Position numbers and translations under genes: made by a program. From Candidatus Shapirobacteria bacterium (GTDB lineage: Bacteria > Patescibacteriota > Microgenomatia > UBA12405), in the NCBI GenBank assembly GCA_028704635.1, contig JAQWFB010000001.1, positions 5,541-69,540 on the forward strand: a DNA stretch of 64,000 bases. The letters run 5' to 3'. The notes under the pieces are model-generated. The model was not told the origin of the DNA. It saw only the letters and a list, made by a program, of their open reading frames with translations, and ran no database searches. Of the stretch, positions 5,162 through 32,395 are shown piece by piece; position 1 is the stretch's first letter, and each line of letters opens with the position of its first letter.

Positions 5162-5172
5162 ATACTGACGGA

Positions 5173-5809: not shown

Positions 5810-5833
5810 TTAAAATATATTTTAAAAATTATT

Positions 5834-7112: not shown

Positions 7113-7128
7113 ATTATAAATCAAAAAA

Positions 7129-8577: not shown

Positions 8578-8680
8578 TTCCTAGTGTAATTTCACAGACA
8601 ATTTTATTTTGATGATAAATCTAAAATTATTCCGAGGGTAATTTTACATGGTTTGATGTTACAATATTGCAATAATCAAG

Positions 8681-16000: not shown

Positions 16001-16265
16001 AATTGACCCAGATGAAATGGAAGGATGTTTAACAGAAATTGATAAATTAAAACGGCGTTTGTTTAGATTACATGCCGAAAAATACTACGGTAACGGTATA
16101 GAAAGATGGGCAAATTGTCTTATCTATCCCTATGGTGTAGTTCCTCCAGATTCTGATACAAGAAACAGAATGTGGCCCACACTTCAGTCGATGAGAAATG
16201 TAGACCTGACTTGTCAGATAGAACCAGATACTTATTATTTAGATCCTCCAGATGTCACAATATAG
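13002..16265 (+). CDS. DrmA-like DExH-box SF2 helicase with internal Cys4 insertion
   Basis: Motif I WFPTGGGKTEAYL, motif II IIQDELHLISG, motif III STAT, motifs V/VI GIDIDRLG...YIQATSRVGRS. A CPWCGAQ...FRCSDQEC zinc knuckle lies between motifs I and II. The start abuts the previous stop. Confidence 0.7.
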   Translation: MPFKDQLIDFLKKGLMGPNPTEGNVQENGEEIIIGSNPCDRYSLGVLFPQSSNTPKKDEIEDIGSEEATEEVVNLANSMAPSAMGFSCGLISPFNDLIIEIKAGTYQKVDDYESSGRYAFLRHQINYEIKISKESLSACDGILHFPIKNGDEETKLGLILLRRKIGSLTHGEDLFTFSLVNYNNEGRDEKCFFQCQFIVKSVDGKPCFAPYPDISEAFGNDYDRLLNAYLYRDKKTFAIGHGCSPLWNDTKNDVSEICANAIPSYEMKPVIPTTIEGCSLGMYEMSDEGKVENIFEKIETLCREYENWINGQQRIIEVETNIKYKEIGQKNILNCKMCLDRMREGFTLLKTDSVVLEAFRLMNRAMLLQQLHYKIDLRIWDDNDDIVQVKMPKLNDKSTWPDKVGNWYPFQLAFILMNLDSMSDPSSKYREMVDLIWFPTGGGKTEAYLGLTAFTIFLKRLTDKNDDGTTVLMRYTLRLLTNQQFQRASSLICSCEYIRSSIPQKLGETKITIGLWAGSGLTPNTRPEAVSKFKKLLQGQDDVNCFLIDKCPWCGAQMGFIKKKNIKAKGYRQMLHPSTVIFRCSDQECFFSHEESPLPLLVIDEDIYDNPPSLVIGTIDKFAMLVWKPESVRKIFGFRDNGRVLPPSLIIQDELHLISGPLGSIAGMYEVLIEELCSQKNSSGIIKPKIVASTATVSRAKEQVNALYGRDVFILPPPATKANDSFFAKEAVDLPGRTYLGIYAPSLSHATAHVRTVSFLLEGVKYIPADPTVKNYYWTLLDYFNSLRELGHAKTRISADIPEYLNIVYSYLGLFHASIEEKAKRRFINPSKCPELTSRVDEISKALNDLKEPYLLENSKALDICLCTNMISVGIDIDRLGLMTVAGQPKTTAEYIQATSRVGRSSKGPGLVVAIFNTPKPRDRSHYENFLSYHSKIYSFVEPTSITPFSRPARERALHALLIGYIRYFGSTDNLLSPKNISDQNIFTRFTEMIKNRVIKIDPDEMEGCLTEIDKLKRRLFRLHAEKYYGNGIERWANCLIYPYGVVPPDSDTRNRMWPTLQSMRNVDLTCQIEPDTYYLDPPDVTI

Positions 16266-18093: not shown

Positions 18094-18274
18094 CATAAAG
18101 TAAATCCTTTATTGAGAAGTCTTAATAAAAAATGACAAATCGATATTTTAATCAGTGTGCCAAACAAATCATTTAAAAAAAAAAACGGTTCATCACGAAC
18201 AAATATAACCACTAAATAATAATCTCCGAACAACTATTTTGTGTATGATAGTAAAGTAGTAAATTACGTTCTTA

Positions 18275-19471
18275 TTACTTATCCTCATAATCCTTTAATG
18301 TGTACTCTTCTTGATATTCTTTGATTTTGTTTAAAATTTTATTTTGACTGTCTACGGCGTAGACTTTTACAATTCCCATCGTACCAGGAGATGGTGCTCC
18401 TCCACCTGATAATTGTGATTTAACTACTATATTATTTCCAATCACCTTAACTCTAATGTCAGTTCCATCTTCAATTAAAAGATTTGTATTATCATCGACT
18501 ATAGTTGATATGGATAACGTTTGACCGTGACAGCTTGAACAACCTTCTCCATTTAAAAACAAAGCTTGTAGGGTTAATTTTCCAACAGTAAATATTTGAC
18601 TTTTTAAAATTACTTCCCTATATTCATTAACTTTAATTAAAGTTTTGTTTTGATTATCTACTTCGTAGACTTTTACATTAATTGCGTCTTCTCCTGTTCC
18701 CACCATGTCTGATTTGAATCTAACCTCAATAGTATTTTTGTCTACTCTAACATTGATTCCATAACCTTTTTCTTTTAAAAACAAATTATCTTTATCAAAA
18801 ATATATAGTTCCTGGGAAACACTACTAGAAATAGGTATCGTCACTAAACTTTCTAGTTTTGACTCATCAACAACTAATTTAGTTTTATTCAATTTCCATA
18901 GACTCTGATTACCTACCAACTTTGAAATTAATGAATAGCTGTTTAAATATTTACTATCTTCCTTAGACAAGGTGTCATCACGGCGTGGATTGATGTTTTC
19001 CTTAATCTCTCCAGTTATTGGATTCACTATTAAACGGTAAGAAGCCGAATAACTTCCACGGTCTGGTTCATTGTTAGACAACTCAATATTTATTCCATCT
19101 ACTACCTTGGCCGAAATTAAACTAGCATTGGCCTGACCCTGTTGGAATAGTTTGGGATAATTATCCTTTCTTACAGTTAAATCAGGCTTAAAATTGTTCT
19201 CACTTTTATTACCCTCAGTGGGATTAATAAAAATAGAACCTTCTGTTAATTGAATTATTAAAACTCCTTTAGGAGTATCTAGGGAAACACTATAATCCAA
19301 TGGTTTGCTTTTATCCTCAGGAACTACAGTTTTTGAATTGTTTTCAATATCAGTAATAACTTCTCTTGGAATGTGTCGACTTATCTTTTCTCTGACTTTA
19401 CTAAAAAAACCAGCAACTAAACAAAAAACAAAGAATAGTATTAGAATTGAAAATAATTTATTTTTAGTCAT
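18275..19471 (-). CDS. secreted/lipid-anchored hypothetical protein
   Basis: N-terminal signal/TM LFSILILFFVFCLVAGFF, then a beta-rich sequence with no catalytic motif. Confidence 0.4.
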   Translation of the reverse strand: MTKNKLFSILILFFVFCLVAGFFSKVREKISRHIPREVITDIENNSKTVVPEDKSKPLDYSVSLDTPKGVLIIQLTEGSIFINPTEGNKSENNFKPDLTVRKDNYPKLFQQGQANASLISAKVVDGINIELSNNEPDRGSYSASYRLIVNPITGEIKENINPRRDDTLSKEDSKYLNSYSLISKLVGNQSLWKLNKTKLVVDESKLESLVTIPISSSVSQELYIFDKDNLFLKEKGYGINVRVDKNTIEVRFKSDMVGTGEDAINVKVYEVDNQNKTLIKVNEYREVILKSQIFTVGKLTLQALFLNGEGCSSCHGQTLSISTIVDDNTNLLIEDGTDIRVKVIGNNIVVKSQLSGGGAPSPGTMGIVKVYAVDSQNKILNKIKEYQEEYTLKDYEDK

Positions 19472-19590
19472 AGCTTAATTTACTCTAATCATTTCATTAA
19501 CTACTAGTTAGTTAAAATATACCATTTTTAGGCTTAATTATTAACCAACAGTTAATAAACTAATTCCAGTCAAATTGTTACCTTCTATCA

Positions 19591-19809
19591 ATGGAAGACC
19601 GTAAGGTAACGAATAAAGACTTAAAATTTGGTAAGAGACTTCAACGAGTCAGAAAATCGGCTGGTTTCACTCAAGAAAAACTAGCAGAGGGGACAAGACT
19701 AAGCACAACCTTCATAGGATTACTTGAAATTGGTCAAAGACGACCAAGTATGAAAACACTCCAAAAAATCGCATCAACATTGAAAGTAGATGTAAAAGAT
19801 TTGTTTTGA
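19591..19809 (+). CDS. XRE-family HTH transcriptional regulator
   Basis: FTQEKLAEGTRLSTTFIGLLEIGQRRPSMKTLQKIASTL is a Cro/C1-type HTH. It is a paralog of 26391-26600 (shared C-terminal D[IV]KDLF). Confidence 0.7.
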   Translation: MEDRKVTNKDLKFGKRLQRVRKSAGFTQEKLAEGTRLSTTFIGLLEIGQRRPSMKTLQKIASTLKVDVKDLF

Positions 19810-19852
19810 CCGACTAGACTTTATTAACCACTGGTTTATAATTAGGTTAATA

Positions 19853-20167
19853 ATGATATTTCCAAATAATAGTTGGCTAGAAAAACATTGGTGGCATAGA
19901 CTAGCAAAAATCTTCAGAATAATTTTTTCTTTATTTTTTATTTTTGTTGCGATATATTATGTCGCTTTTGTTCCGGTTGTTGATCCTGCCATGAACATTT
20001 CTATTCCAATTTGCGCTGGAATATCAATATTAATTGCCATCTTTGGTTTTCCTCTTTTGTATAAAATTTTACTGTATGTTTTTGTAAGTGATTGGAAAAC
20101 AAAAATTAAACCCGATAAAAAAAGTTCAGAACAAACTAAAGCTAAATGGAATCATACGATAATGTAA
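19853..20167 (+). CDS. small 2-TM membrane protein (hypothetical)
   Basis: Hydrophobic helices. Confidence 0.35.
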   Translation: MIFPNNSWLEKHWWHRLAKIFRIIFSLFFIFVAIYYVAFVPVVDPAMNISIPICAGISILIAIFGFPLLYKILLYVFVSDWKTKIKPDKKSSEQTKAKWNHTIM

Positions 20168-20360
20168 GTTAAAGTCTACCCGCGTAGACAATTACATAAA
20201 ATTTTAAACAATCAATTATTGTTCGTCTTAGTATTGCTGGCAACGAGACAATCATAAATCTTAAATAAGTTTAGGTCGTATTAACACCAAATCTGGCTTC
20301 ACTAAATGACCTAGAATCGTTGGAATATCATTAATCGAGTATAATTAGGTTAGATTAATA

Positions 20361-21053
20361 TTGATATTAAAAATGGACAACAATGTTAGTAAACTGGTTG
20401 TACTAATAACCAAGCAACGAAAATTTATTGAGAGTAATTTTGAGAAATATCGGGAAGAGATTTGCAATCTTGGTGATGACAAAATATTGGAATTTCTTGG
20501 GAGTACCGAAAGTGAAATTGCTTTATGGGAAAAGAGAGTCATTAGGGTGTTAAAAACTTTTAACAAACAAAACTACCTAATCCGTTTTAGTCATCCAAAG
20601 GATATTAAGTCATCCCACAACGCCTATATTACGGAAGCTATCGATTGCAAAGTCATGGCTCAACTTAATGAATTAAACGATATTTTAACTGAACTCGAAA
20701 ATAATAATTTACCAATAAAATCCAAAAAAATTATTCACCAGATTGAATACACTGAAAATCGTGAAATTTTATTAGACGGAAAAGTAATTCATCGATTCCA
20801 ATCAGATTCACCAGGCGAAAATCTTTTTAGCTACTTAATTAATAATCCAAATAAAGTTATTGAATTAAAAGAAATTGAAAAAAACGAAGGTAGAGATGAT
20901 ATTTCTAAAGGAATTCATCAAAAAATTAGAGACTTAGGTTTCAAAGGAAAATTAAAGACGATGTTTTTTCCAGGATTAGATGAACAAAAAATCCAATTTA
21001 TCAACCCAATCACCAAAGCTTACTTAAACGAGAATCACATCTTTGAAACTTAA
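20361..21053 (+). CDS. hypothetical protein
   Basis: 230-aa ORF inside the mobile element with no motif. Confidence 0.35.
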   Translation: MILKMDNNVSKLVVLITKQRKFIESNFEKYREEICNLGDDKILEFLGSTESEIALWEKRVIRVLKTFNKQNYLIRFSHPKDIKSSHNAYITEAIDCKVMAQLNELNDILTELENNNLPIKSKKIIHQIEYTENREILLDGKVIHRFQSDSPGENLFSYLINNPNKVIELKEIEKNEGRDDISKGIHQKIRDLGFKGKLKTMFFPGLDEQKIQFINPITKAYLNENHIFET

Positions 21054-21302
21054 CCAATATCGATAATGTGAAACAGTGTGAAATGATGAGAAATCCCTAA
21101 AGTAGGGCATAACTGATTATACAATCTGTTATGTCAATAAATTTAAATGAAGATTGGCTCAATAGTGAGCTTAAAAAAGAGGTACTCGATCTCTTTCAAC
21201 CTTTGTATAAACACCCATTGACTGAAACTGAAGTAACAAATATTGCCAACACTCTCGCCAACACAGCCGAATTATGGATTAAATTCAACTGGAGGATCGA
21301 TC

Positions 21303-21536
21303 ATGCCAACTAATAACTATAGAACCAAGGATCTAGCTGAATCAGCCACCCTGCTTACCTTAGGACAAAAAATTATTGATGTTGAAAGAATAGACCGTAT
21401 TTGCTGGTTTGTTTTTGCCGATTCAAAAAAATGCCAAAAAATAGCTAATCAATTTTGGTATGACCAATGTCTCGTCGATGCCAAAACTTATTATGATTCG
21501 ATTGTCAGGTTAAAAAATAGAATATTTTCTAGCTAA
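21303..21536 (+). CDS. DUF5659-like small protein typical of integrative elements
   Basis: YRTKDLAESATLLTLGQKIIDVERIDRICWFVFADS...FWYDQ pattern (DL.LAa.L..lG..l / kv.FvF / .Yw). The internal Met start is inferred. Confidence 0.4.
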   Translation: MPTNNYRTKDLAESATLLTLGQKIIDVERIDRICWFVFADSKKCQKIANQFWYDQCLVDAKTYYDSIVRLKNRIFSS

Positions 21537-21555
21537 GAAGACCAAGCAGACAAAT

Positions 21556-22050
21556 ATGATTAAAATTAATAAAAAAGGCTGCACCTGGATTCCAAACTAT
21601 TGGATTGTCGGTGATGACATTTCTGACGCCGCTTTTCGAACTCTTTCAATCATTAGAAGTTACAACTTTGATCAAATTTACCCATCCGTAAAAAGAATTG
21701 CTGAAAGAAGAGGTAAGAGTAGAAGTACCATTTTTCTCCACCTTAAAGAACTAAAGGAGAAGAAATATATTACAACCAAAAGATCAGGATACTCTACTTC
21801 AAATATATACAAATTCAGTAGTCCAGAAAATTGGACTAATGAATCAAACCCGACATCAAATAATGATACTTCTATCGTCCAGGAAACTGGTCTTCAGTCG
21901 TCCAATAATCCAGACCCTAATAATAGTCTTAATAAAGAATTAAAAAATAGTCAAAATCCTTTAAGGGGAGAAGAATTAGAAAAGGCTAAAGAAAATCTTT
22001 TTAATAAACTCCCATGGGTAAACAAAAACAAAAATCATCTTAAAAAGTAA
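21556..22050 (+). CDS. winged-helix DNA-binding protein (replication/excision accessory-like)
   Basis: IAERRGKSRSTIFLHLKELKEKKYITTKR wHTH. Confidence 0.35.
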   Translation: MIKINKKGCTWIPNYWIVGDDISDAAFRTLSIIRSYNFDQIYPSVKRIAERRGKSRSTIFLHLKELKEKKYITTKRSGYSTSNIYKFSSPENWTNESNPTSNNDTSIVQETGLQSSNNPDPNNSLNKELKNSQNPLRGEELEKAKENLFNKLPWVNKNKNHLKK

Positions 22051-22091
22051 TATAATTTTATTAGGGAAACCAATAATAAAATCTCAAATTT

Positions 22092-23699
22092 TTGGAATAT
22101 TCGGTTATATCAATTAATATCAATATGAAAACAAATCAAGACAATTCGTTAAAGTATTGCCAATACTGTCGAAAATCATCCGAGAGTAAAGAAAAACAGG
22201 CCTTATCGATTCCTGATCAAATCAAGGTTTGTGGAGAATATGCTGTCAAAAACGAACTAAATATTGTTGCAAAAATAGAAGAATCAAAATCTTCTTACAA
22301 ACCCCATATCAGACCTGAATTCGATAAAATTTTAAAAATGATTGGCGATAAAAAAATTGATGCAATTCTGACATGGAAACTTGATCGACTATGCCGTAAT
22401 CCAGAAGAAGGTGGAATTCTACTTCAATTACTTCAAGACGGAAAAATAAAAGAAATTAGGACACCAATGGGAGATATTTATACCCAAGAAAGTGATCATT
22501 TAATTCTCCAAATTCATTTTGGAATGGCAAATCAATATTCACGAGCAATCAGTCAAAACGTTCGTCGTGCTCTCGTATGTAAAGCCGAAAGGGGAGAGTT
22601 TACTAAACCTGCTCCACTTGGCTATGAAGGAATCGGTGAAAGTAAAAGTCGTTTGATTAAACCTCATAAATTTGAAGCACCACTTCTAGTTCAAGCTTAT
22701 GAATTAGCTAAATCTGGTCGGTACTCACTAAGTAATATTCAAAAATATTTAAAAGATAACGGTTTAAAAACCAAAAGAGGGAAAGATTTAAGCAAAAGCC
22801 ATTTATATCGAATCCTTACCAGTTCAATTTATTATGGTGTTTTCAACCATAATGGCATTGCTTATCAAGGTAACTATGAACCACTTATCAATAAGTCAAC
22901 CTTTGATGAAGTTCAAATCGCTTTGGGTGTTAGGTCTAAGCCCAAGAAATTAATTTGGGAGTCGGTTTACAATGGCTTATTCTTCTGTCCAGATTGTGGC
23001 TGTGCCATAACCACTGTAAACAAAAAGAAGTTAATTAAAAAAACTAATAAATATGAAACTTACACTTATCTAGTGTGTACTCATCGAAAGGGAAATTGCC
23101 AACAAAAACCAATATCTGCAGATGATTTTGATAAACAAATTATGGCAAAAATCGGGCCACTTAAACTTACCGAAAGAAAATGGGAATTAGCATTAAAACT
23201 ATTTCGAGCCAAAAATGCCAATCAAAATCAAACCCAATCTAAATTTATTGATAACCTTCATTTGCAACTCAAGATTCATCAAGAAAAATTAAATCGACTG
23301 ATTAATATGAGAGCAGGAGACGAAATTACTGCTGAAGAGTTCAAAGAACAAAAATTAATTATCCTTAATGAACAAACACGAATCAGTGAGGCAATCAATC
23401 GATACAACGAAACCAATCAAAATTGGTTGGAACTGTCAGAAAACTTCATAAATAAGGTATTCTTAGCCAAAAAAATATTATCCGATGGTTTACCAGAAGA
23501 AAAAAAGAAACTGATTGATGAGGTCGGTCGGAACTTATTTCTAAACAATAAAAAAGTGGAACTTACCTTAAAAGAACCATACATAGCCATGACAAATCCA
23601 GCTATTTCTAATAATATGCGGGCAATGTGGTCCGAACTTGGAACTTATTTAGATAGGAATGATACAATCAAATATGAATTGTCCACATTGTTTACATAG
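22092..23699 (+). CDS. large serine recombinase (integrase), element 1
   Basis: Resolvase N-domain YCRKSSESKEKQ (Ser nucleophile motif) and LDRLCRN. Recombinase domain, zinc ribbon CPDCGC...C, then a coiled-coil tail. The 3' end spans the right att-like repeat. Confidence 0.85.
   Translation: MEYSVISININMKTNQDNSLKYCQYCRKSSESKEKQALSIPDQIKVCGEYAVKNELNIVAKIEESKSSYKPHIRPEFDKILKMIGDKKIDAILTWKLDRLCRNPEEGGILLQLLQDGKIKEIRTPMGDIYTQESDHLILQIHFGMANQYSRAISQNVRRALVCKAERGEFTKPAPLGYEGIGESKSRLIKPHKFEAPLLVQAYELAKSGRYSLSNIQKYLKDNGLKTKRGKDLSKSHLYRILTSSIYYGVFNHNGIAYQGNYEPLINKSTFDEVQIALGVRSKPKKLIWESVYNGLFFCPDCGCAITTVNKKKLIKKTNKYETYTYLVCTHRKGNCQQKPISADDFDKQIMAKIGPLKLTERKWELALKLFRAKNANQNQTQSKFIDNLHLQLKIHQEKLNRLINMRAGDEITAEEFKEQKLIILNEQTRISEAINRYNETNQNWLELSENFINKVFLAKKILSDGLPEEKKKLIDEVGRNLFLNNKKVELTLKEPYIAMTNPAISNNMRAMWSELGTYLDRNDTIKYELSTLFT
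23623..23655. repeat. right copy of 33-bp direct repeat (att-like)
   Basis: caatgtggtccgaacttggaacttatttagata matches 5173-5205. Confidence 0.6.
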
Positions 23700-24354
23700 T
23701 TTTCACGATAGTCCTTCAAGATTAAAAACAGGTGGTTGGATGTATTATGATAAAACAATTTGGAATTTTGAATATCAAGAATGCCCAGAATGTAAAAAAT
23801 TAATAGGAAAAATTCTCATATCAGAAGATGATGGAATAAAAGAAATAATGGCATATCCTAAAAAAAATTCGCGAACAGTATTGCCTGACTTTATAGATAA
23901 ACAATTTTTAGAAGACTACAACGAAGCATGCTCTGTAATTAATGAAAGTCCCAAAGCAAGTGCAGCACTTAGCCGTAGATGTTTGCAAAATATATTAAGG
24001 GAAAAAGCCATGATTAAACGCTTTGACACAATACAAGGCAAATATATAACAGAAAAAATAACTCCATCTGATTTATCTAAAGAAATTCAACAAGTACTAG
24101 ATATGGGCAACCTTACCTCCAATATAAGTGAAGGATTAGATGCAATTAGGGCGATTGGTAATTTCGCAGCACACCCAATTAAAAGTACTAATACAGGAGA
24201 AATTTTTAGTGTTGAAACTGGAGAAGCTGAATGGAATTTAGAAATACTTGAAAGTTTGTTTGACTATTACTTTATTCAGCCAAAAAATATTCAAGATAAA
24301 AAAAATGCATTGAATATTAAGCTCAAATCAGCCGGTAAACCTGAAATCAAATAA
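23659..24354 (+). CDS. zinc-ribbon + DUF4145-like domain protein
   Basis: N-terminal CPHC...CPEC zinc ribbon. ASAALSRRCLQNILRE resembles the DUF4145 core helix. Confidence 0.45.
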   Translation: MIQSNMNCPHCLHSFHDSPSRLKTGGWMYYDKTIWNFEYQECPECKKLIGKILISEDDGIKEIMAYPKKNSRTVLPDFIDKQFLEDYNEACSVINESPKASAALSRRCLQNILREKAMIKRFDTIQGKYITEKITPSDLSKEIQQVLDMGNLTSNISEGLDAIRAIGNFAAHPIKSTNTGEIFSVETGEAEWNLEILESLFDYYFIQPKNIQDKKNALNIKLKSAGKPEIK

Positions 24355-24494
24355 AATATATAATGTGTATAAAATTCTCTTTTGATAAATTATTGACAAA
24401 GATTTTATAAAATGTAAGACTTTTATAATAAAAAGTAGAAAAGATGATTATATTTGATATAATTCGACACAGTATTATTTAAAAAATAAAAAAA

Positions 24495-24749
24495 ATGCCT
24501 ACCAAAGAACCAAGAGAAATTGTTAATTCAGCTTTAACTTACCTACAAGAAGTTACACCATCAATTCAAAGAATTAGTGATGTTCGACTTGAAGAATTAG
24601 CACCAATAGAAGACGGTGTTAATTGGAGAGTTGTTTTGAGTTATGATGCTGTAGGAGAATTTCCTTTTGATAAAAAAAGAGAATATAAAGAATTTATAGT
24701 AGAGTCGAACACTGGTAAAGTTCTTTCAATGACAATCAAAAAAGTTTAA
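24495..24749 (+). CDS. hypothetical protein
   Basis: 84-aa ORF with no motif. Confidence 0.3.
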   Translation: MPTKEPREIVNSALTYLQEVTPSIQRISDVRLEELAPIEDGVNWRVVLSYDAVGEFPFDKKREYKEFIVESNTGKVLSMTIKKV

Positions 24750-24758
24750 TTATATAGA

Positions 24759-25301
24759 GTGAATAATTTAAGTAGCTTAGAAGAAATTTCGCAATTCAGA
24801 GCAAAACATTATTCGGCTGAATTAATTATAGATACAAATATCCTTTTGTTATTACTAGTCGGAGCATATGATAAAGAATTTTTAACAAATTGTGGTTTAA
24901 TGACTGAAAATGGCAAAAACTACAAAATAGAAGATTATAATGTTCTAATAAAGATAGTTGCTCGTTTTCTTAATAAAATTACTATCACTCCTCAAATTAC
25001 AGCAGAAATCTGGTCTTTATCTAAAACAAAAATACCATCAGTAATATTTAACAAATATTTTTCACAAACATTAGAATCTCTTAAATCTTATCAAGAAAAA
25101 AATATACCACTTTCTGTTATATTACAAAATCATCAACAAGTATTAGAATTTGGATTTACCGATATTGGTTTGACTGAAGCCGCGAGAGAAAACAAAGCTA
25201 TTATTCTCACTGACGAATATCCTTTTTATGCCACATTCAGAGAGAAAATACCCATAATTAAATTTAGCAATATAGTAGCACAACACCTTATAAATAATTA
25301 A
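24759..25301 (+). CDS. PIN-like domain protein
   Basis: LIIDTNILLLLLVG acidic Asp motif and later ILTDEYPFYA. Confidence 0.4.
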   Translation: MNNLSSLEEISQFRAKHYSAELIIDTNILLLLLVGAYDKEFLTNCGLMTENGKNYKIEDYNVLIKIVARFLNKITITPQITAEIWSLSKTKIPSVIFNKYFSQTLESLKSYQEKNIPLSVILQNHQQVLEFGFTDIGLTEAARENKAIILTDEYPFYATFREKIPIIKFSNIVAQHLINN

Positions 25302-25564
25302 TTATTCACTTATTTAAAGTAATTTATAAAAACACAATAAAATACTATAAATAGGGATTTTTATTTTGGATAATTTTATTTAATCTCCAATTTTTTCATT
25401 AATTTCTTCAAGCTTTTTATATACTTCTTCTAAAACTACATCTAGAGATGTCGTTTGACCAGCACTTCCAGCATAAGCAGTTACTATTTCAATAGCTTTT
25501 AAAAATAAATTAGATTTTGAATATGACATATTAAATCTCCAACAAATTATTAATTAATATAATT

Positions 25565-26290
25565 CTAACAAATTTGTATTTTCCTACACAAGTAAACCAA
25601 TTCAGATGAATCTTTAGGGTCTTCTTGATGAAAATTTTCAAGTTTATCAACTAAAAACTTGTGTAAGAATTTACTGTTTCTAATTAAACTTAAAATTATT
25701 TTCGGGACAAACTTACTTATCGTTGTAATTTCATTACTTGAACTAACTCCTTTAATTTCCAAAATTTCAAACGAATTTCTTTCTAATAATTGCTTCATCT
25801 CTTCCAAAGTAAATTCTTTAATATGAAATTTATTCAATCCTAAAGATTTATCTTTATTTGGAGTTGTTAAAAACAATAAACCACCTGTTGTTAAAGACTT
25901 GGATAAATTTGATAAATAAAATTCATAATTTTTCAAATGTTCCAGCACATCCAAAGAAATTACTAAATCATAATAATTAGATTCAAATTCTGTTTTATTA
26001 AAATCTTTAATTCCAAAATTAAGTGATTTACTTTGATTTTTATCTTGGCAATAATTAATTGCTTCTTTGTCAATATCAAAAGCATCAACCTTTTTTGCTC
26101 CTAAAGATAAAAGAATTGGTTCTGTTAATCCATACCCACACCCAGCATCTAAAACACATTTATTTAATGCCGAAGGTATAAGAGTGGAAACTTTATCATG
26201 ATATTTTTTCAACCAATATAATTCAGAATTATTTGGGTTATATCTTTCAGTTGAAGCTATCCCTTTCTTTAAATTTTTGACACCTTTCAT
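25565..26290 (-). CDS. class I SAM-dependent methyltransferase (small-molecule/RNA type)
   Basis: Motif I VLDAGCGYGL, acidic loop DAFDID, motif DLVISLDVLEHL. Confidence 0.65.
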   Translation of the reverse strand: MKGVKNLKKGIASTERYNPNNSELYWLKKYHDKVSTLIPSALNKCVLDAGCGYGLTEPILLSLGAKKVDAFDIDKEAINYCQDKNQSKSLNFGIKDFNKTEFESNYYDLVISLDVLEHLKNYEFYLSNLSKSLTTGGLLFLTTPNKDKSLGLNKFHIKEFTLEEMKQLLERNSFEILEIKGVSSSNEITTISKFVPKIILSLIRNSKFLHKFLVDKLENFHQEDPKDSSELVYLCRKIQIC

Positions 26291-26390
26291 AGTTAATTAT
26301 TTTATTGAATAAATTTACCTTACTTGTCGCTATTTTTAATATAAATAGGAAATATATTTCCTGTTGAAATAATGACATTTATGTCAGATT

Positions 26391-26600
26391 TTGTCAATGA
26401 CAACTAAATATCAAAAACTAGGTGAGAGAGTAAAAGAGTTAAGAAAAGACAGGGGATTATCCCAAGAACAGTTAGCCGAAATGGTTAAATGTGATGTTAG
26501 AACTATTGTTGCAATTGAAGGTGGTAAAAGAAATCCAACATTAGACACAATGAATAAAATTGCCAAAGCTGTAAACGCCGATATAAAAGATTTATTTTAG
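26391..26600 (+). CDS. XRE-family HTH transcriptional regulator (paralog of 19591-19809)
   Basis: LSQEQLAEMVKCDVRTIVAIEGGKRNPTLDTMNKIAKAV HTH. Confidence 0.7.
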   Translation: MSMTTKYQKLGERVKELRKDRGLSQEQLAEMVKCDVRTIVAIEGGKRNPTLDTMNKIAKAVNADIKDLF

Positions 26601-26618
26601 TTTTCTTTAGGTTAAATT

Positions 26619-26703
26619 ATTTTTTTCTCACCCCGACCTTAAAAGTTGCACTCATGTGAGGCGTAGCCGAGCATGAGATAATGCGACTTTGGGTTGGGGT
26701 GAA
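26619..26703. repeat. structured repeat unit: copy 2 of the 7076-7112 repeat plus its inverted partner (gggttggggtgaaa) enclosing an inner ctcatg/catgag stem
   Basis: tctcaccccgacc...ggttggggtga imperfect inverted repeat ~60 nt apart. Candidate small RNA or recombination site. Confidence 0.45.
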
Positions 26704-27209
26704 ATATATCAACCATTGGAATTAGTAAAGACTTTATGGAGTTTTTGGAGCTCATGGAATCACCGATAATGTGATATTATTATCTTAATTATAAATTCTG
26801 CTTTTGTAGAATTTAGACGTTCTTTTAATAATCAGGACATTTTTATAAAAAAAAGATACGTAATCGTAGCAATATAAAAATATCTGATTCCCAGACAAAA
26901 GGGTACTAAATAATGTCGGCATTTGATACTTTACAAGCCTTGTACATTTCCCAAAACACAAACGGTGTAATCGATAAACAAACAGACTATAGAATTCAAT
27001 CTAAACTTTCAGTCCATATGTTTATTTATTGCGCCTAAATCTGCAAAAGTCCTAAAAACGGACTTTTGTGATTTCTCCAAATCAAACTCTAAAAATAGAA
27101 AAATATTTTCAGACAACTTATTGCCAGAAATTAACACATCAAGAAATCGAAGAGATAACCCAAAGTCTTAAATACCTTGGTAAGGCAATAGTCCGTTTTC
27201 ATTTACTAA

Positions 27210-28274
27210 ATGAAAAAGAAGGACATAAAAAACGATAATCAAATTAGACTTTTTGAATATAAAAAAAATGAATTTCCTGTTCTCCTTCAAACTGAAACCG
27301 CCTGCGGTCAGTTTGAAGAGATAGATTGTAGCGATAAAAACATTATTCTTCCTTCTGAATATAAGCCTAATACTGTATTATCCTTGACTCTTAATAGATC
27401 ATCTCAACAACCAACTAGAAAATACGATACAACCATGTCTCAACACATTCGTGATGTCAAAGAACAAATGAAAAATCAATTTTTTAGAATGTCTCATTAT
27501 CCTTGTAATTTTAGTAGTGATAAAAAAGCATTACTTTTTATTGGTAACGATGGAAAAGTAGAAAATGTTAGATATAAATTTAAAAGTTGTAATTCATGGA
27601 CTTGTCCTCGTTGTGCTCCTATTAAAGCCAAAGCTATTGGTCACCAAATTTCAGAGATAGCTATTACCAATAATTTAATTTATTACTTAACACTAACTCT
27701 TGATCCAAAAAAAATATCTCCTGAAGATATTTTAGATTCTAGAACTCATAAATTAATCACTGGATTTTTTAATCATTTTATTACAACTATCAAAAGGAAG
27801 AAATTTACTTATTTTCGTGATGGTAAGACTTACAGATTTGATCTTAAAAATAAAGAAGAAAAACTTAAATATATTTGGGTTATTGAATTTCAAAGAAATG
27901 GTTTAGCTCATATGCACATATTACTTAATAAATTTTTACCAGTAGAAATTATTAGAAAGGTTTGGACTCATGTTGGAGGTGGTCATATTATGAAAATTGA
28001 AAAAGCAAAAAATATCCAAGCTGTTGGCAATTATATTACTAAATATATTTTTAAAGAGTTTGAAAATATTGACCAAGTAAGAAATACATTTCACTTTTTT
28101 GAAAAAAGATATTCTATTAGTCAATCATGTCAAAAACCGCCTAAGGTAACAACAAGAATGTTTGAAAAAGATGTTGATAATTTTGATATTAATATCAAAA
28201 TGAAAGAATTAAGATTAGATTGGGTTTATAATACTCTTAACCCTCCCCCTATAAATAATCATTCTGACTTATGA
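27210..28274 (+). CDS. HUH endonuclease of the phiX-gpA / Rep_trans superfamily (rolling-circle initiator or MOB_T-type relaxase)
   Basis: HUH motif LAHMHILLN. Paired-Tyr motif NYITKYIFK (Y-x-x-K-Y-x-x-K as in phiX174 gpA YVAKYVNK). Cys cluster CNSWTCPRC. Confidence 0.6.
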   Translation: MKKKDIKNDNQIRLFEYKKNEFPVLLQTETACGQFEEIDCSDKNIILPSEYKPNTVLSLTLNRSSQQPTRKYDTTMSQHIRDVKEQMKNQFFRMSHYPCNFSSDKKALLFIGNDGKVENVRYKFKSCNSWTCPRCAPIKAKAIGHQISEIAITNNLIYYLTLTLDPKKISPEDILDSRTHKLITGFFNHFITTIKRKKFTYFRDGKTYRFDLKNKEEKLKYIWVIEFQRNGLAHMHILLNKFLPVEIIRKVWTHVGGGHIMKIEKAKNIQAVGNYITKYIFKEFENIDQVRNTFHFFEKRYSISQSCQKPPKVTTRMFEKDVDNFDINIKMKELRLDWVYNTLNPPPINNHSDL

Positions 28275-29761
28275 AATATTTTGCTTATTGTCGAAAATCA
28301 ACCGAGGATAATTCTCATCAAGCTCAATCTATTGAAACACAAAAAAGAATTCTTTCGGATTTTGCCAAAAATAATGATATTGAAGTAGTTGATTTTATTA
28401 TTGAAACAAGAAGTGCAAAAAATGACGGAAACAGGCCAGAGTTTGAAAACATGTTAAAAAGATTCGAAAAAAAAGAAGCTGAAGGACTCTTAGTTTGCCA
28501 CATTGATCGTATTAGTAGAAATTGGATAGAAGCCGGACAAATTAGCAAACTTCACGATTTAGGATTAATCAAAGAAATTCGTACTTCTCAAAAAACATAC
28601 AGTACTTCCGCAGATATGTTTATGATGGGAGTTGAAATGGCTTCATCTTCTTATTATTCAAGAAATCTTTCTGAAAGAGTTAAGGAGGGGATTGCTACTA
28701 AATTATCAAAAGGTGAATATTCCGCACCGGCACCATTGGGCTATAAAAATAATCATGGAAATATTATTCCAGATTCTAAAACCCAACATTTTATCAAAGA
28801 AGCATTTGAGCTTTACGCAACAGGAACTTATTCTATTAATCAAATAGCTGAAAAACTTTATTCTGAGGGCTTTAGAACGCGTAGAGGTGGCAATAAAGTT
28901 TACAAGTCAGTAATTCATCGGATTCTTAATAATCCAGTTTATTATGGCGTGATGATTAATAAAGGCAAAAGATATCAAGGCAATTTTAAACCATTAATCT
29001 CAATGGCTTTATTCAACAAGGTTCAATTTCTTTTAAATGGAACTCATCACACTAAAAAACAAAAACATAATTTCTTATTCAATAAATATCTAACCTGTGA
29101 AAAATGCGGTTGTAGAATTACTGCCACGCTTAAAAAAGAAAAACATACTTATTATTACTGCACCAACGGTAAACATAATTGCGATCAACATTCTAAATAT
29201 TTAACAGAAAGTCTTATCGATAAATTAATTGGTGATGTTATTTCTAACATAACTTTAGACAAAGAATTGGCTAACTTATCATTAAATATGTATGCTGATG
29301 AATTAAGAAAGAAAAGTTTAAATAAAATTGGCGAAAGCCAAATTATCCAAGAACAAATAGATAATTTGAAGAAAAAAGAAAATAGGCTTTTAGATATGTA
29401 TTTAAATCAAGATATCGCCAAACAAATTTACGAAACTAAAAAAGCAGAAATTGAAGAAAATTTAGAAGATTTAAATACCGCATTAAAAAACTCGAAAAAC
29501 AGTAACCCTGAAATCACTTTGGAACTTTTAGAAAAATTTAAAAACACCGCTGTTTCCCTTAAAAAAATGTATGACACTGGCGATAGAGAGATAAAAGAGA
29601 ATTTATTAAAATCAGTACTTTGGAACGCTTCTATTGAAAATGAAAAAATAGGGAAAGTTACATATAAAAAACCGTTCGCTTACCTTGAAAAAATGGTAAA
29701 AACGAACGATTTTTCGCTAATGCGGGCCCGATGGGATTCGAACCCACGATCTTCCGCGTGA
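28271..29761 (+). CDS. large serine recombinase (integrase), element 2
   Basis: YCRKSTEDNSHQ, HIDRISRN, zinc ribbon CEKCGC, coiled-coil. The last 13 codons (MRARWDSNPRSSA) are encoded by the antisense of the tRNA-Asp 3' half. Confidence 0.85.
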   Translation: MKYFAYCRKSTEDNSHQAQSIETQKRILSDFAKNNDIEVVDFIIETRSAKNDGNRPEFENMLKRFEKKEAEGLLVCHIDRISRNWIEAGQISKLHDLGLIKEIRTSQKTYSTSADMFMMGVEMASSSYYSRNLSERVKEGIATKLSKGEYSAPAPLGYKNNHGNIIPDSKTQHFIKEAFELYATGTYSINQIAEKLYSEGFRTRRGGNKVYKSVIHRILNNPVYYGVMINKGKRYQGNFKPLISMALFNKVQFLLNGTHHTKKQKHNFLFNKYLTCEKCGCRITATLKKEKHTYYYCTNGKHNCDQHSKYLTESLIDKLIGDVISNITLDKELANLSLNMYADELRKKSLNKIGESQIIQEQIDNLKKKENRLLDMYLNQDIAKQIYETKKAEIEENLEDLNTALKNSKNSNPEITLELLEKFKNTAVSLKKMYDTGDREIKENLLKSVLWNASIENEKIGKVTYKKPFAYLEKMVKTNDFSLMRARWDSNPRSSA

Positions 29762-29796
29762 CAGGCGGATGTGCTAGACCGCTGCACCACGAGCCC
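29723..29796 (-). tRNA. tRNA-Asp (anticodon GUC)
   Basis: Reverse complement gives GGGCTCG acceptor, anticodon loop CTGTCAC and T-loop TTCGAAT. It is overlapped by the recombinase 3' end. Confidence 0.8.
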
Positions 29797-29876
29797 ATTG
29801 GTCTAAGTATCCTGATAATATACCAAAACTTCCTCAAACAAACAACAAATTGATTAATTTGTTCTATAATTAACAT

Positions 29877-30914
29877 ATGAACAAAATTTACAGTAATACT
29901 GAGGTTGCTGAATACTTACAAAATATTTCTACTGCTTATGAAATTAAACGAAAAAATATTTTCAAAACCGTTTCTTATCAAAACGCCGCTGACACTGTTG
30001 CTACCTATCCAAAATCTATTCAAGAAATTTGGCAAAAAAATCCAAAAGACTTAGATAATATTCCTAATATTGGACCAAATATTCTCGCCAAAATCGACTA
30101 TTTATTTAAACACAACCAACCTCATCCAGCCGTTATTAAAGCTTTTAAAAATATTCACCCTAGTGTTTTTACTTTTACCAAAATTGAAGGCATTGGTCCC
30201 AAAATTGCCTATAAGCTTAGCAAAAATTTAAAATTTTCAAGTGATCCGGAAAAATCTTTAACTGAATTAATTGAATACGCTCAAAACGGCAAAATTAGAA
30301 ATATCCCTAAATTAGGCCAAAAATCAGAACAATTAATTTTAACCCAAACTCTAAATTTTTTAGGTCTTGGAAAACGAATGACCTTAAAACAAGCCAAAAA
30401 AACCGCCCAAAAAATTATTGATTATCTTCATCAACAATTCCCCGAAATCGAAATTATTCCTCTCGGCAGCCTTCGCCGCCAAGTTAAAACAATAGGGGAC
30501 ATTGACCTTGCTGCTAAAAGTAGTGATACCGAAAAAATATTAAACAATTTTGTTGAATACCCAGAAAAAATTCAAATCATTAATAGAGGTGATAAAAAAG
30601 CCTCAATTTTAATTGAAAATTATGTTCGAGTCGATTTAATGGTTCAGCCATCAGAGAATTTCGCTTCTCTAATTCAACATTTTACCGGCTCTCGTCAACA
30701 CAATATTAATTTAAGAAAATACGCTTTAAACTTAGGCCTTTCAATTTCTGAATATGGTATAAAAGATCTAAAAACAGGTAAAATTAATACATTTGATAAT
30801 GAAGAAAAACTTTATAACTTCTTAAGGCTTTGCTATATTGAACCTCAAAAAAGAACTGGCGATAAAGAGATTGAAATCGCTCAAGAATGTTATAATGAAT
30901 CAATTAAAAATTAA
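29877..30914 (+). CDS. family X (Pol beta-like) nucleotidyltransferase / PolX polymerase domain, no PHP domain
   Basis: HhH segments (GIGPKIAYKL) and GSLRRQVKTIGDIDLA nucleotidyltransferase motif. Confidence 0.6.
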   Translation: MNKIYSNTEVAEYLQNISTAYEIKRKNIFKTVSYQNAADTVATYPKSIQEIWQKNPKDLDNIPNIGPNILAKIDYLFKHNQPHPAVIKAFKNIHPSVFTFTKIEGIGPKIAYKLSKNLKFSSDPEKSLTELIEYAQNGKIRNIPKLGQKSEQLILTQTLNFLGLGKRMTLKQAKKTAQKIIDYLHQQFPEIEIIPLGSLRRQVKTIGDIDLAAKSSDTEKILNNFVEYPEKIQIINRGDKKASILIENYVRVDLMVQPSENFASLIQHFTGSRQHNINLRKYALNLGLSISEYGIKDLKTGKINTFDNEEKLYNFLRLCYIEPQKRTGDKEIEIAQECYNESIKN

Positions 30915-30921
30915 TAAATAA

Positions 30922-31500
30922 ATGATTTACGTAATTATTCTCGTCCTAGCTATTGTTTTTTTACTTTTCAGTTTCTACAACAAATTAAAAACCACTCAAG
31001 TCAGAATTAAAGCTTCCATTCAAGAAATCGGCAATCAATTAAAGCGCCAAGCCAATTTAATTCCCAATCTTGTCGATTCTGTAAAAGGTTATATGACCCA
31101 CGAAAAGGGGATTTTTGATCAATTAACCGAAGCTCGAAAATCAATTGATCAAGCAGTTCAAACTAACGATCCAAAAGCTATGGATAAATCTCAAGAATTG
31201 ATCAATAAAGCTCTTGGCTCCATTAAAGTTGTTATGGAAAGTAATCCAGAAATTAAGGCTTCAGATCTAGTTTCCAATTTAATGAACGAACTCCGCGACA
31301 CCGCCGATAAATTAATGTATGCCAGACGAACTTTAATTGATCTTACTGCCGATTTCAACACTACTATTTCCACTATTCCAGGAATGTGGATCGCCCCACT
31401 TTTTGGTTTTAAAGAAGAAAAAGGACTAAGTACTCCAACTGATATGAATCAACTTGAAGTTTCTAAAGAAGAAACCAAAAATCCAGAAGTAAAATTATAA
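30922..31500 (+). CDS. lemA: LemA-family membrane protein
   Basis: N-terminal TM, then YNKLKTTQVRIKASIQEIGNQLKRQANLIPNLVDSVKGYMTHEKGIFDQLTEAR. Confidence 0.75.
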   Translation: MIYVIILVLAIVFLLFSFYNKLKTTQVRIKASIQEIGNQLKRQANLIPNLVDSVKGYMTHEKGIFDQLTEARKSIDQAVQTNDPKAMDKSQELINKALGSIKVVMESNPEIKASDLVSNLMNELRDTADKLMYARRTLIDLTADFNTTISTIPGMWIAPLFGFKEEKGLSTPTDMNQLEVSKEETKNPEVKL

Positions 31501-31510
31501 AAAGATTTTT

Positions 31511-32395
31511 ATGATCAACGTTTACGAACAAGTCTCTATAAACAAATTTAAGTCGGGTTTAATTATTAGCCTATTTATAGGTTTTATTTTAGGCGCCACT
31601 TATTTAATTTCCCAAGCTTTCGGCTTTGGTAATGAATTTATGATTTTTGCTTTAGTTATTTCTTTTGGCATGTCTGGTGTTAGTTATTTTTGGGGCGACC
31701 AAATTGTCGTTTCTCTAAACGGTGCCAAACCAGCCAACCGTAAAGAATTTTTTGATTTTTACACTGTCACTGAAAATTTAAGCATGGCCAATAGAACTCC
31801 TATGCCAAAAGTTTATGTCATTGATAGTCCAGCCATGAATGCTTTTGCTACTGGTCGCGACCCTGAACATTCGCTAGTTTGTGCTACAACAGGTCTTTTA
31901 CAAAAATTAAATCGCACCGAACTCGAAGCTGTCATCGGCCATGAACTTTCTCATATTAAAAATTACGACATTCGGTTAATGATGATCGTCAGTATTTTAA
32001 TTGGCACACTTTCGATTGTCGTTAATTTTGCCACTAATTCCATGTTTTTTGGCGGTCGCGACAATGATAGCGACAACAACAATCCTTTTATCGCCATTAT
32101 CGGTTTAGTTTTAATCATTTTTGCCCCAATAATCGCCCAATTAATTCAATTAGCAATTTCTCGTCGTCGCGAATTTTTAGCCGATGCTTCAGCAGTAAAA
32201 TTAACTCGTCAACCTCAAGGACTTATTGATGCTCTTAAAAAAATATCCACAGATTCCAGTAAATTAGAAACAGCCTCCACGGCTACAGCCTCCCTTTATA
32301 TCAGTAATCCATTTAAAGGTAATAAAGTTGCCAGTCTTTTTTCTACCCACCCCCCAATAGAAGATAGAATCGCCACTTTAACTAAAATGCTTTAA
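31511..32395 (+). CDS. htpX: M48-family zinc metalloprotease HtpX-like
   Basis: HELSHIKNYD (HExxH), multi-TM, canonical LemA partner. Confidence 0.75.
   Translation: MINVYEQVSINKFKSGLIISLFIGFILGATYLISQAFGFGNEFMIFALVISFGMSGVSYFWGDQIVVSLNGAKPANRKEFFDFYTVTENLSMANRTPMPKVYVIDSPAMNAFATGRDPEHSLVCATTGLLQKLNRTELEAVIGHELSHIKNYDIRLMMIVSILIGTLSIVVNFATNSMFFGGRDNDSDNNNPFIAIIGLVLIIFAPIIAQLIQLAISRRREFLADASAVKLTRQPQGLIDALKKISTDSSKLETASTATASLYISNPFKGNKVASLFSTHPPIEDRIATLTKML

Follow-up and report, generated by a model that had tools for sequence, protein, structure and literature searches.

The DNA examined here (the window) is a stretch of 64,000 nucleotides from a Candidatus Shapirobacteria bacterium (GCA_028704635.1, contig JAQWFB010000001.1, positions 5,541 to 69,540 of the forward strand). 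Our analysis focuses on E2, a segment of 6.1 kb at 23624-29721 on the plus strand that borders a tRNA-Asp gene. We consider it likely that E2 is an integrative element with an operon consisting of a replication initiator (Rep) and a large serine recombinase (LSR), the latter referred to as rec2, and that it lies in tandem with an independent element, E01 (7168-23623, plus strand), at an integration hotspot. At the level of sequence, the presence of an integrative element at tRNA-Asp is demonstrated by an insertion polymorphism, three copies of a core, recurring attachment-site arms, the family memberships of the encoded proteins, and a geometry that recurs throughout the family. An earlier note on this DNA had proposed a second integrative element in tandem at tRNA-Asp, with a serine recombinase and a Rep of the HUH type; the empty site, the repeated core and the Rep profile described below bear this out.

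The empty site and the attachment sites

The target is the gene of tRNA-Asp(GUC) on the minus strand, predicted at 29722-29796 by ARAGORN and at 29723-29796 by Rfam (67.3 bits), and adjoined on its right by a PolX-like gene (29877-30914). By way of an identically encoded PolX-like protein, a 10.9-kb contig of GCA_028689945.1 (L001) was found in which the same site is empty. Positions 2433-8459 of L001 align to 1134-7167 of the window with 99.3% identity and positions 8438-10925 to 29708-32195 with 99.8% identity; L001 is without the sequence 7168-29721, and terminator hairpin and tRNA-Asp are contiguous. A hairpin resembling an intrinsic terminator is directly followed by the tRNA in L001 (...aaaatcccctaaagcaggggatttttgtataaaGCGGGCCCgatggg). 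In the window, the left flank that matches L001 ends with ...gtataaaGCGGGCCC and then runs on as tagtgaactatg..., and the sequence before tRNA-Asp is ...cgctaatGCGGGCCC. Because a near-identical genome has the empty site, 7160-29721 is regarded as the insertion; it comprises 22,562 bp (22.56 kb) and is located at the last bases of tRNA-Asp. The tRNA at the occupied site is intact, and its sequence is that of the copy at the empty site. Whether a relative has an empty site or a duplication of the attachment site (att) had been set beforehand as a test of the proposal; L001 is empty, and the core is repeated.

The 8-nt core GCGGGCCC, which represents the last bases of the tRNA, is found at both ends of the 22,562-bp insertion. 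On the left, attL (7127-7167, plus strand) is composed of the B arm, with the terminator hairpin at 7127-7151, and the core at 7160-7167; on the right, the crossover region of attR has its core at 29722-29729, at the 3' end of tRNA-Asp. The sites compared are attB of L001 (...gtataaaGCGGGCCCgatggg), attL of the insertion (...gtataaaGCGGGCCCtagtga), the internal junction between E01 and E2 (...aatatGCGGGCaatgtgg) and attR (...gctaatGCGGGCCCgatggg); they agree with one another over GCGGGC(CC) only, which forms the final 6-8 nt of the tRNA. A pattern search for GCGGGC after AT-rich sequence on the plus strand yields three relevant places only, at 7160, 23618 and 29722, and the real site is the only place where the tRNA 3' terminus was found together with the adjoining flank. 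The partial copy of the tRNA-Asp 3' end that had been anticipated at the left boundary did not appear: a repeat search, a pattern search allowing 3 mismatches and local alignment found no displaced 3'-half copy left of the element and nothing longer than the 6-8-nt core, and Rfam, applied to 4000-32000 at a permissive threshold, reports tRNA only. The lack of a long tRNA copy is expected because the enzyme is a serine recombinase; few shared bases and no long direct repeats are typical of the short att sites of LSRs. The locus also has what characterizes an integrative element, i.e. an empty site in a close relative, the core at both ends, an integrase at one edge and a restored target gene.

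At the internal junction (23618-23660, plus strand), the end of the P arm of rec1, which is the LSR of E01, is followed by the core GCGGGC at 23618-23623 and then, from 23624 to about 23660, by the P' arm of E2. This middle core sits inside the tail of rec1 (...aataatatGCGGGC joined to AATGTGGTCCGAACTTGGAACTTATTTAGAT), and the sequence to its right is a left-end P' arm of the E2 type, 94.7% identical to the left junction of the E2 relative L002/L091. The latter is a complete element of 5.8 kb with an LSR that is 87% identical to rec2, bounded by attL and tRNA-Asp; its left junction consists of the hairpin and tttGCGGAC, followed by AATGTGGTCCGAAC... The core of L002 is an A variant (GCGGACC), the same as in its own tRNA, which indicates that the left copy of the core comes from the host. 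P' arms of the E2 type recur at 10 attL-type sites in JGI metagenomes. The left boundary of E2 had initially been set at 23656, which is accurate to within 35 nt; the junction itself is at the core 23618-23623, with the P' arm starting at 23624.

According to the model that we derive from these sites and from what is known of the families, the LSR would recombine attP with attB by a 2-bp crossover in the core, where the exact crossover dinucleotide would have to lie. rec2 would thereby join attP to the last 6-8 bases of tRNA-Asp and leave the tRNA intact. The core GCGGGC stands exactly where the conserved part of the LSR coding sequence ends, and the gene reaches the crossover without a stop codon. 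While E2 is integrated, the open reading frame (ORF) of rec2 runs through 40 nt of the antisense tRNA and stops at a TGA in the anticodon loop; in the circle formed on excision, it would read into the other end of E2, with the predicted tail ...MRAMWSELGTYLDRNDTIKYELSTLFT, and ...MRALVNYVSNYYQHNPGYNCLLG is the tail predicted for excised rec1. The aligned sequences themselves reveal which site is used, the cores and arms, the preservation of the tRNA and this swap of tails. Catalysis and excision, the latter by the LSR with a directionality factor, would follow the habit of the family; Rep would then replicate the circle by the rolling-circle route, provided that the element is active. That tRNA-Asp is the attachment site was correctly recognized in the earlier note, but the crossover is not at the end of the ORF in the anticodon, since the core consists of the last 6-8 nt of the tRNA.

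The recombinases and the replication initiator

The recombinases rec2 (28271-29761, plus strand; 496 amino acids (aa)) and rec1 (22092-23699, plus strand) share the domains Resolvase, Recombinase and Zn_ribbon_recom. The resolvase catalytic domain (Pfam: PF00239) is found at 1.1e-22 in rec2 and at 8e-20 in rec1; in the test for LSR domains, PF07508 (7.7e-16) and PF13408 (1e-5) are at or above their cut-offs. With 32% identity over 509 columns (E = 3e-70) and the same three domains, the two are indeed the paralogs they had been taken for, and their tails, MRARWD and MRAMWS, agree with the pattern MRA[MR]W[SD]. Among 32 LSR homologues, R8, K9 and S10 are at least 90% conserved, and C276, C279, C281, C297 and C304 are invariant.

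The ORF of rec2 ends with ...MRARWDSNPRSSA and a stop codon (...SLMRARWDSNPRSSA). It had been reported to read 39 nt into the antisense strand of tRNA-Asp(GUC), and the overlap is indeed 39 nt according to Rfam and 40 nt according to ARAGORN; the TGA (29759-29761) overlaps the complement of the anticodon, GAC (29760-29762). The conserved coding sequence of rec2 stops at the core, and the last 11 codons (RWDSNPRSSA plus stop) originate from antisense tRNA-Asp. The last 25 codons of rec1, by comparison, come from the P' arm of E2 (tail MWSELGTYLDRNDTIKYELSTLFT). Relatives of rec1 with 70-87% identity end with ...NMR[VA]QWDSNPRS[SF]A, i.e. with the tRNA-Asp tail, and rec1 itself is predicted to end with ...MRARWDSNPRSSA if placed beside the tRNA. 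Tails of the DSNP type, which are the translated antisense T-loop GATTCGAACC, are present in 78 of 120 homologues of rec2 and in 46 of 120 homologues of rec1. We interpret the 40-nt overlap of rec2 with the tRNA as read-through into host DNA and not as a mark of the crossover.

Rep (27210-28274, plus strand; 354 aa) is a two-tyrosine rolling-circle initiator of the HUH type, and its stop codon overlaps the start of rec2 (ATGA). It matches PF23343 (REP_ORF2-G2P) with 42.6 bits at a curated cut-off of 27.8, phrog_3419 ('rolling circle DNA replication initiation') at 5.5e-18, and also phrog_3584; PF23343 is the family of plectrovirus ORF2, inovirus G2P and the Reps of small plasmids. The protein contains an N-terminal CxxWxCPxC, LTLT (motif 1), HMHIL (motif 2) and YITKYIFK (motif 3). 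Across 41 Rep homologues, no variation is seen at C127, W130, C132, C135, LTLT, H234, H236, Y275 and Y279, and the conservation of K282 is 90% or higher. The HUH and two-tyrosine motifs pointed out in the earlier note are therefore well founded, as their residues are invariant, and the HUH motifs align to a Rep profile above its curated cut-off. An AlphaFold2 model (pLDDT 84.9) finds its best matches in the PDB, weak ones, among HUH nucleases. The nearest annotated relatives are rep genes of Spiroplasma plectroviruses, a replication initiator of a small virus, and cryptic plasmids of 1.4-7 kb typed as non-mobilizable.

The proposed membership in the phiX-gpA/Rep_trans family, from which the MOB_T relaxases derive, has to be replaced by PF23343. 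Neither Rep_trans (PF02486) nor a Phage_GPA profile of Microviridae gpA matches at E <= 0.1, the only Pfam matches listed being PF23343 and three weak profiles of the HUH type. The spacing of the two-tyrosine motif resembles that of phiX174 gpA, as the sole point of likeness. The RepSA profile reaches 20.3 bits, under its curated cut-off of 34.

Judging by the comparison of E2 with L002, Rep is exchanged as a cassette between elements. On either side of Rep, the two elements are 94% and 88% identical at the nucleotide level, whereas the Reps themselves (window 27235-28268 versus L002 3602-4452) are 29% identical over 117 residues and belong to an HMHIL type and an AVHYH type, respectively, both within PF23343. 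In phiX174 and P2 the replication origin is located inside the initiator gene, and by analogy the origin used by Rep may lie inside the Rep gene.

A conserved non-coding stretch of 470 nt (26601-27067, plus strand) is situated upstream of this operon. It is 94% identical to L002 and 83% identical to L004, and more conserved than the flanking genes. The block includes a hairpin of about 80 nt (26629-26707); across 4 sequences the hairpin has 31 pairs, and compensatory changes occur at 2 of these. The fold z-score is -7.1; because of the G-U pairs of the hairpin, the structure is assigned to the plus strand, as single-stranded DNA or RNA. The hairpin part of the block also occurs in L008, beside another Rep type. 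No Rfam family matches the block, which could be a single-strand origin or a regulatory RNA; it is probably not a Rep-specific origin, because elements with Reps as dissimilar as 29% identity have it in common. Between the block and Rep, a 56-aa ORF (27068-27238, plus strand) overlaps the start of Rep; it has a weak helix-turn-helix (HTH; Homeodomain) signal under the cut-off and may be a putative regulator or directionality factor. Homology of this ORF to the small ORF at 21131-21313 was considered and dismissed, as BLASTP gives no alignment.

The remaining part of E2 starts with a DUF4145 / PD-T7-4-like gene (23659-24354), which matches the PADLOC model PD-T7-4 (7.3e-17) and phrog_1305. Two ORFs of 84 aa (24495-24749) and 180 aa (24759-25301), each assigned to no family, could represent a two-gene defence or toxin-antitoxin pair. 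They are followed by a SAM methyltransferase (25565-26290, minus strand) and an XRE regulator (26391-26600) that is 40% identical to the XRE of E01. The cargo of E2-type elements is presumed to consist mostly of defence genes.

Integration separated tRNA-Asp from a strong downstream terminator. On the minus strand of the occupied site, no convincing terminator follows the tRNA, and the first weak candidate (29341-29328) is located about 380 nt inside rec2. Because no convincing terminator follows, read-through of tRNA-Asp transcription antisense to rec2 is plausible and would be possible in principle.

The tandem, the hotspot and alternative readings

E01 measures 16.46 kb including one core, carries a DISARM-like cargo together with rec1, and begins with a P' arm of the rec1 type (7168 to about 7200). 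The tandem partner of E2 is not the stretch of 19.5-23.7 kb alone; an internal element boundary near 19.5 kb is unsupported, with no core or P' arm between 7168 and 23618, and the partner is the 16.5-kb E01 from 7168 with its DISARM-like cargo. In three loci (L097-L099), rec1-type elements stand alone and directly against tRNA-Asp beside the same PolX gene, with the gene order XRE, 230-aa protein, 60-aa protein, (DUF5659), HTH protein and LSR. L100 possesses the reverse order: an element with Rep and a rec2-type LSR comes first, and a rec1-type element lies between it and tRNA-Asp. The P' arm found at the junction in L100 (attaggtaactatgttggaacctatttt) resembles that at 7168 of the window (cctagtgaactatgtcagcaactactat). 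Since either type is also found by itself and the two are known in both orders, we attribute the tandem to independent integrations, and by this comparison E01 is an independent element with another type of replication initiator than E2. As for the order of the two integrations, E2 may have entered attR of E01 or E01 may have entered attL of E2; from structure alone, the product is the same.

Older traces are found at the same site. A relic attL (5126-5210, plus strand), which is also present in L001, comprises another copy of the terminator hairpin usually located behind tRNA-Asp (here at 5136-5160), then gaCGGAC as a degenerate core, and a P' arm of the E2 type, AGTGTGGTCCGAACTTGGAACTTATTTA. 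At this relic starts an old remnant, R0 (5165-7159), whose genes are 82% and 74% identical at the nucleotide level to cargo of the intact element L002, and which keeps only the left half of the conserved hairpin (7077-7111). In related genomes, such units form rows of two to four (L004/L096, L094, L088). An unrelated example is L028 from WWE3 bacterium UBA1397, where three consecutive recombinase modules (316-10935) end at tRNA-Ser(GGA): an LSR; a PF23343 Rep with an LSR; and a Phage_CRI (G2P) Rep with a 585-aa protein, which has a weak resolvase signal only and whose ORF crosses the whole tRNA-Ser(GGA). With each type found alone, both orders, the remnant R0 and multi-unit arrays, the integration hotspot suggested previously receives support: by these comparisons, the tRNA-Asp site is a hotspot where elements accumulate and decay.

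A weak match to a ThsB-like TIR-domain protein (21.8 bits, cut-off 21.2) is encoded on the minus strand both in R0 (5834-6454) and in L002 (764-1381). The B arm, consisting of hairpin and core, flanks short remnants on either side, and arrays contain as many as four copies of it; such duplicated B arms are located at 5126-7167 of the window, at 1144-1467 of L088, at 209-278 and 1422-1497 of L094, and at 3491-6615 of L004. Simple accretion at the tRNA does not explain them, because it predicts one junction only. They are possibly cassettes devoid of an LSR that were mobilised in trans, or scars of a repair by recombination with DNA carrying the empty site.

Could the 22.56 kb have entered once, as a fused cointegrate, so that the tandem would not require two integrations at a hotspot? 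In this species two states only are seen, empty (L001) and doubly occupied, and the internal junction, with the P arm of rec1 against the P' arm of E2, is attP-like, which is what one would expect of a cointegrate or of a circle that had left another tandem. Yet each type stands alone at tRNA-Asp in relatives (L002/L091; L097-L099), the opposite order exists in L100, and the older remnant and the multi-unit arrays at the same site represent repeated events, which makes a single entry unlikely. We also regard it as quite unlikely that E2 is a fixed, immobile remnant whose Rep-LSR operon is decaying or co-opted: the ORFs of Rep and LSR are full length and keep all invariant catalytic residues of their families, the att arms are intact, and the insertion is polymorphic between genomes that are 99.3-99.8% identical, even though the excised form went undetected and the neighbouring remnants indicate that decay is common at the tRNA-Asp site.

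Two further interpretations concern the nature of Rep and of E2, and both appear very improbable to us. According to one, the HUH protein is a relaxase that nicks an origin of transfer (oriT), and E2 is an integrative mobilizable element (IME) using a type IV secretion system encoded elsewhere. The HUH two-tyrosine chemistry is common to Reps and relaxases, and a survey from 2025 reports that most type IV secretion clusters of Patescibacteria are without a known relaxase and that 'very different relaxases' may remain (PMC12102498). The profiles that the protein matches, however, are all those of Reps (PF23343, phrog_3419, phrog_3584), and at E <= 0.1 it matches no relaxase family; its annotated relatives are Reps of phages and small plasmids, the latter typed as non-mobilizable; and no coupling-protein or secretion genes were called in E2 or in those related loci whose called genes were read. 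According to the other, E2 is a defective or satellite prophage with a single-stranded DNA genome, of the plectrovirus or inovirus type, that borrows the virion of a helper. Its Rep belongs to the family of Spiroplasma plectrovirus ORF2 and inovirus G2P, and a Phage_CRI (G2P) Rep is encoded in one module of L028. A serine recombinase inserts the phiRSM inoviruses at the 3' 13 bp of tRNA-Ser (PMC4471427), and the Candidate Phyla Radiation is reported to contain inoviruses (PMC6813254). What speaks against a prophage is the lack of a pI/Zot ATPase or coat gene, both in E2 (all ORFs of at least 50 aa scanned with Pfam, seven with PHROGs) and among the called genes of L002-L007; PHROGs matched only Rep, LSR and one DNA-binding family among the E2 ORFs scanned, the cargo consists of defence-like or methyltransferase genes, and the LSR relatives in IMG/VR are integrated copies with tRNA tails only.

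Several observations also weigh against the favoured interpretation, namely E2 as an integrative element in tandem with an independent E01. The sole empty site seen, L001, is without both elements at once; the mobility of E2 alone is therefore inferred from relatives. To our knowledge, characterised LSRs do not use hybrid attL/attR sites, so that the tandem needs tolerance of a P arm in place of a B arm; the P arm of rec2 and the B arm share 11 of the 20 proximal bases. No recombination directionality factor was identified for E2; we know of no common sequence signature for these factors, and the 56-aa ORF and the XRE regulator of E2 are guesses at a candidate. A conserved hairpin lies upstream of Rep; no nick site of Rep and no double-strand origin was located in E2. 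Circular intermediates, proposed earlier as a check, were not found: metagenome, genome and viral collections contain neither a circular junction of P and P' arms nor a circular contig, a degenerate pattern of core plus P' arm finds 10 JGI metagenome sites, all of the attL type, and none in IMG/VR, and the retrieved short contigs have no terminal overlaps.

The cargo of E01 is arranged as a DISARM-like system; DISARM is characterized by DrmA, DrmB and a methyltransferase, along with DrmE (class 2) and DrmC. A C5 methyltransferase (7495-8577, minus strand) that matches DrmMII models is followed by a DrmE-like gene (8681-11317), weakly matched at 2.7e-4 and with Pfam DrmE_C at 8.7e-9, by a helicase with NERD and UvrD-type domains (11277-13001) in the place expected for DrmC, and by DrmA (13002-16265; 1.7e-212) and DrmB (16252-18093; 2.1e-78); no phospholipase D (PLD)-type DrmC was found in this cargo (7495-18093). 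The remainder of E01 up to rec1 contains a 398-aa protein with no assignment (18275-19471, minus strand), the XRE gene (19591-19809), a DUF5659 gene (21243-21536), and a replication initiator of the HTH_36/DnaD-like type (21556-22050).

A family of tRNA-targeting elements

A survey with one genome per species provided 80 loci from Microgenomates, Parcubacteria, Saccharibacteria and WWE3. In 39 of the 80 loci the ORF of the LSR ends inside an antisense tRNA, with overlaps of 7-118 nt and 16 tRNA species concerned: Asp, Ser (five anticodons), Gln (two), Val (two), Asn, Tyr, Glu, Trp, Lys and Ala. Several further loci have DSNP-type tails and no detectable tRNA. Because the overlap recurs in 39 of 80 independently fetched loci, it goes beyond chance. 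The geometry is fixed as well: in 30 of 38 loci analysed, the tRNA 3' end follows the proline codon of a conserved YKxP[FY] motif at a distance of 48-50 nt (50 nt in the window), the other 8 being mismatches of the regular expression used. A PF23343 Rep is encoded directly upstream of the LSR in 42 of the 80 loci; with the window and L002-L004 counted, 46 of 49 ORFs upstream of an LSR match this family, and RepSA gives weak profile matches in 28 of the 49 Reps. Many contigs with an LSR at a tRNA (L013, L015-L018, L020, L021, L024 and others) come from metagenome-assembled genomes titled Gammaproteobacteria, Bdellovibrionales, Thermococci, Planctomycetales or Methanoregula; they are probably mis-binned or mislabelled and do not reflect a wider host range. 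A literature search, which was incomplete, so that a prior description is possible, found no account of tRNA-targeting LSR-Rep elements in Patescibacteria, and this large, rule-bound family is apparently undescribed.

Throughout the family, the conserved coding sequence of the LSR stops at the crossover, and the stop codon is taken from the sequence beyond; the tail comprises about 4 to 39 residues, depending on the tRNA. Because the stop is borrowed and the length of the tail follows the tRNA, the tRNA-encoded tail is regarded as read-through and not as a selected peptide. Rarer tails that do not stem from a tRNA (...LGNYVGTYF, ...LVDYVGTYY, ...ELGTYL) are encoded by P' arms, and they mark tandem junctions where the context was checked (window, L100). 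Among 15 distinct E2-type P' arms (window 23624-23650 and 5172-5198; L088-L096, L004), most substitutions are synonymous in the frame of the LSR (GAA/GAG, ACT/ACA/ACG, TTA/TTG/CTA) and the rest are conservative, which, the numbers being small, hints that the tail of the excised form, W-x-E-L-G-T-Y-L, is selected as protein.

The group of the phiRSM inoviruses is the closest functional parallel to E2. Like E2 in the proposed model, the Ralstonia prophages phiRSM1 and phiRSM3 are small, replicate by rolling circle, use a serine recombinase for integration and excision, and reside at a tRNA 3' end, their attP being the 3'-terminal 13 bp of tRNA-Ser (PMC4471427). Unlike E2, they have an Int of the small resolvase/invertase type, an attP between genes, coat and morphogenesis genes, and a proteobacterial host. 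With phiC31, Bxb1, SPbeta, A118, TnpX and CcrAB, rec2 shares the domains Resolvase, Recombinase and zinc ribbon, the short identity of att sites, and an integrase gene at the edge of the element; the known targets of phiC31-type LSRs, however, are protein-coding genes, whereas in the E2 clade a tRNA is the rule and the ORF of the LSR has no stop of its own. The textbook rule holds that tyrosine integrases use tRNA genes and serine integrases protein-coding genes. Because a whole clade of LSRs uses at least 16 tRNA species with one fixed geometry, this rule is not mechanistic. In a survey from 2020, serine integrases (S-Ints) were described as 'not known for targeting tRNA genes', with 14 of 297 cases flagged as needing experimental proof (PMC7192596), and the largest survey of LSRs does not mention tRNA (PMC10083194).

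The tycheposons of Prochlorococcus resemble E2 and E01 in being small, in combining cargo with their own replication genes, and in accumulating as tandems at a small number of tRNA genes, where remnants stay behind and islands with defence and niche genes result; they differ in that 910 of 937 have tyrosine recombinases, and in encoding primases, helicases and polymerases instead of HUH Reps (bioRxiv 10.1101/2020.12.28.424599). Tycheposon arrays are marked by partial tRNA repeats, whereas E2 and E01 repeat 6-8 nt of the tRNA only. SSV1 and BPs-type mycobacteriophages are like E2 in that attP is inside a gene of the element and integration alters the product: the int gene of SSV1 is split at a tRNA, and the BPs-type repressor loses a C-terminal tag on integration, both by tyrosine recombinases. 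There, the change is large or of demonstrated regulatory role; in the E2 family it affects the last 4-39 residues only. A tyrosine recombinase together with Xis also serves as the integrase of pSAM2. The integrative and conjugative elements of actinomycetes (AICEs) pSAM2 and SLP1 share with E2 the integration at a tRNA 3' end and a rolling-circle initiator that amplifies the excised circle (PMC2440964). They possess an FtsK-like Tra for double-stranded transfer, unlike E2, which has no FtsK-like gene; with RepSA below its cut-off as well, E2 is not classified as an AICE. Streptococcal IMEs are likewise small and combine a serine recombinase with a single-strand nicking protein (PMC7563843, PMC5357655). 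Their nicking protein belongs to Rep_trans (PF02486, MOB_T), their mobilisation is conjugative, and their targets are oriT or protein-coding genes, in all of which they differ from E2.

A more far-reaching hypothesis, which we put forward as speculative and rather doubtful, combines these observations. It assumes a Patescibacteria-wide clade of LSRs that is specialised on tRNA 3' ends and has no stop codon of its own. The tail of the circle (W-x-E-L-G-T-Y-L or L-x-N-Y-V-G-T-Y-F) varies mostly synonymously, while the chromosomal tail is an arbitrary peptide of the antisense tRNA; swapping them, together with convergent tRNA transcription without a terminator, would form a built-in switch that responds to whether the element is integrated or excised. 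Direction or expression would thereby be controlled with no need for a classical directionality factor. These LSRs may also move LSR-less cassettes of hairpin, core and P' arm in trans, which would give rise to integron-like defence arrays beside tRNA genes.

Patescibacteria have tiny genomes and few recognised mobile elements, and E2-like elements appear to be a main vehicle of their traffic in defence genes (DISARM-like, PD-T7-4-like, TIR-like). Recombinase ORFs with tails of the ...DSNPR type mark tRNA-integrated elements and can be used to find the boundaries of islands. For organisms with almost no genetic tools, LSRs whose short att sites fall within universally conserved tRNA sequence are candidate components of such tools, along with a minimal Rep module. 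Locally, E2 is one more integrative element; its value is that it exposes a family of LSR-Rep elements that target tRNA genes.

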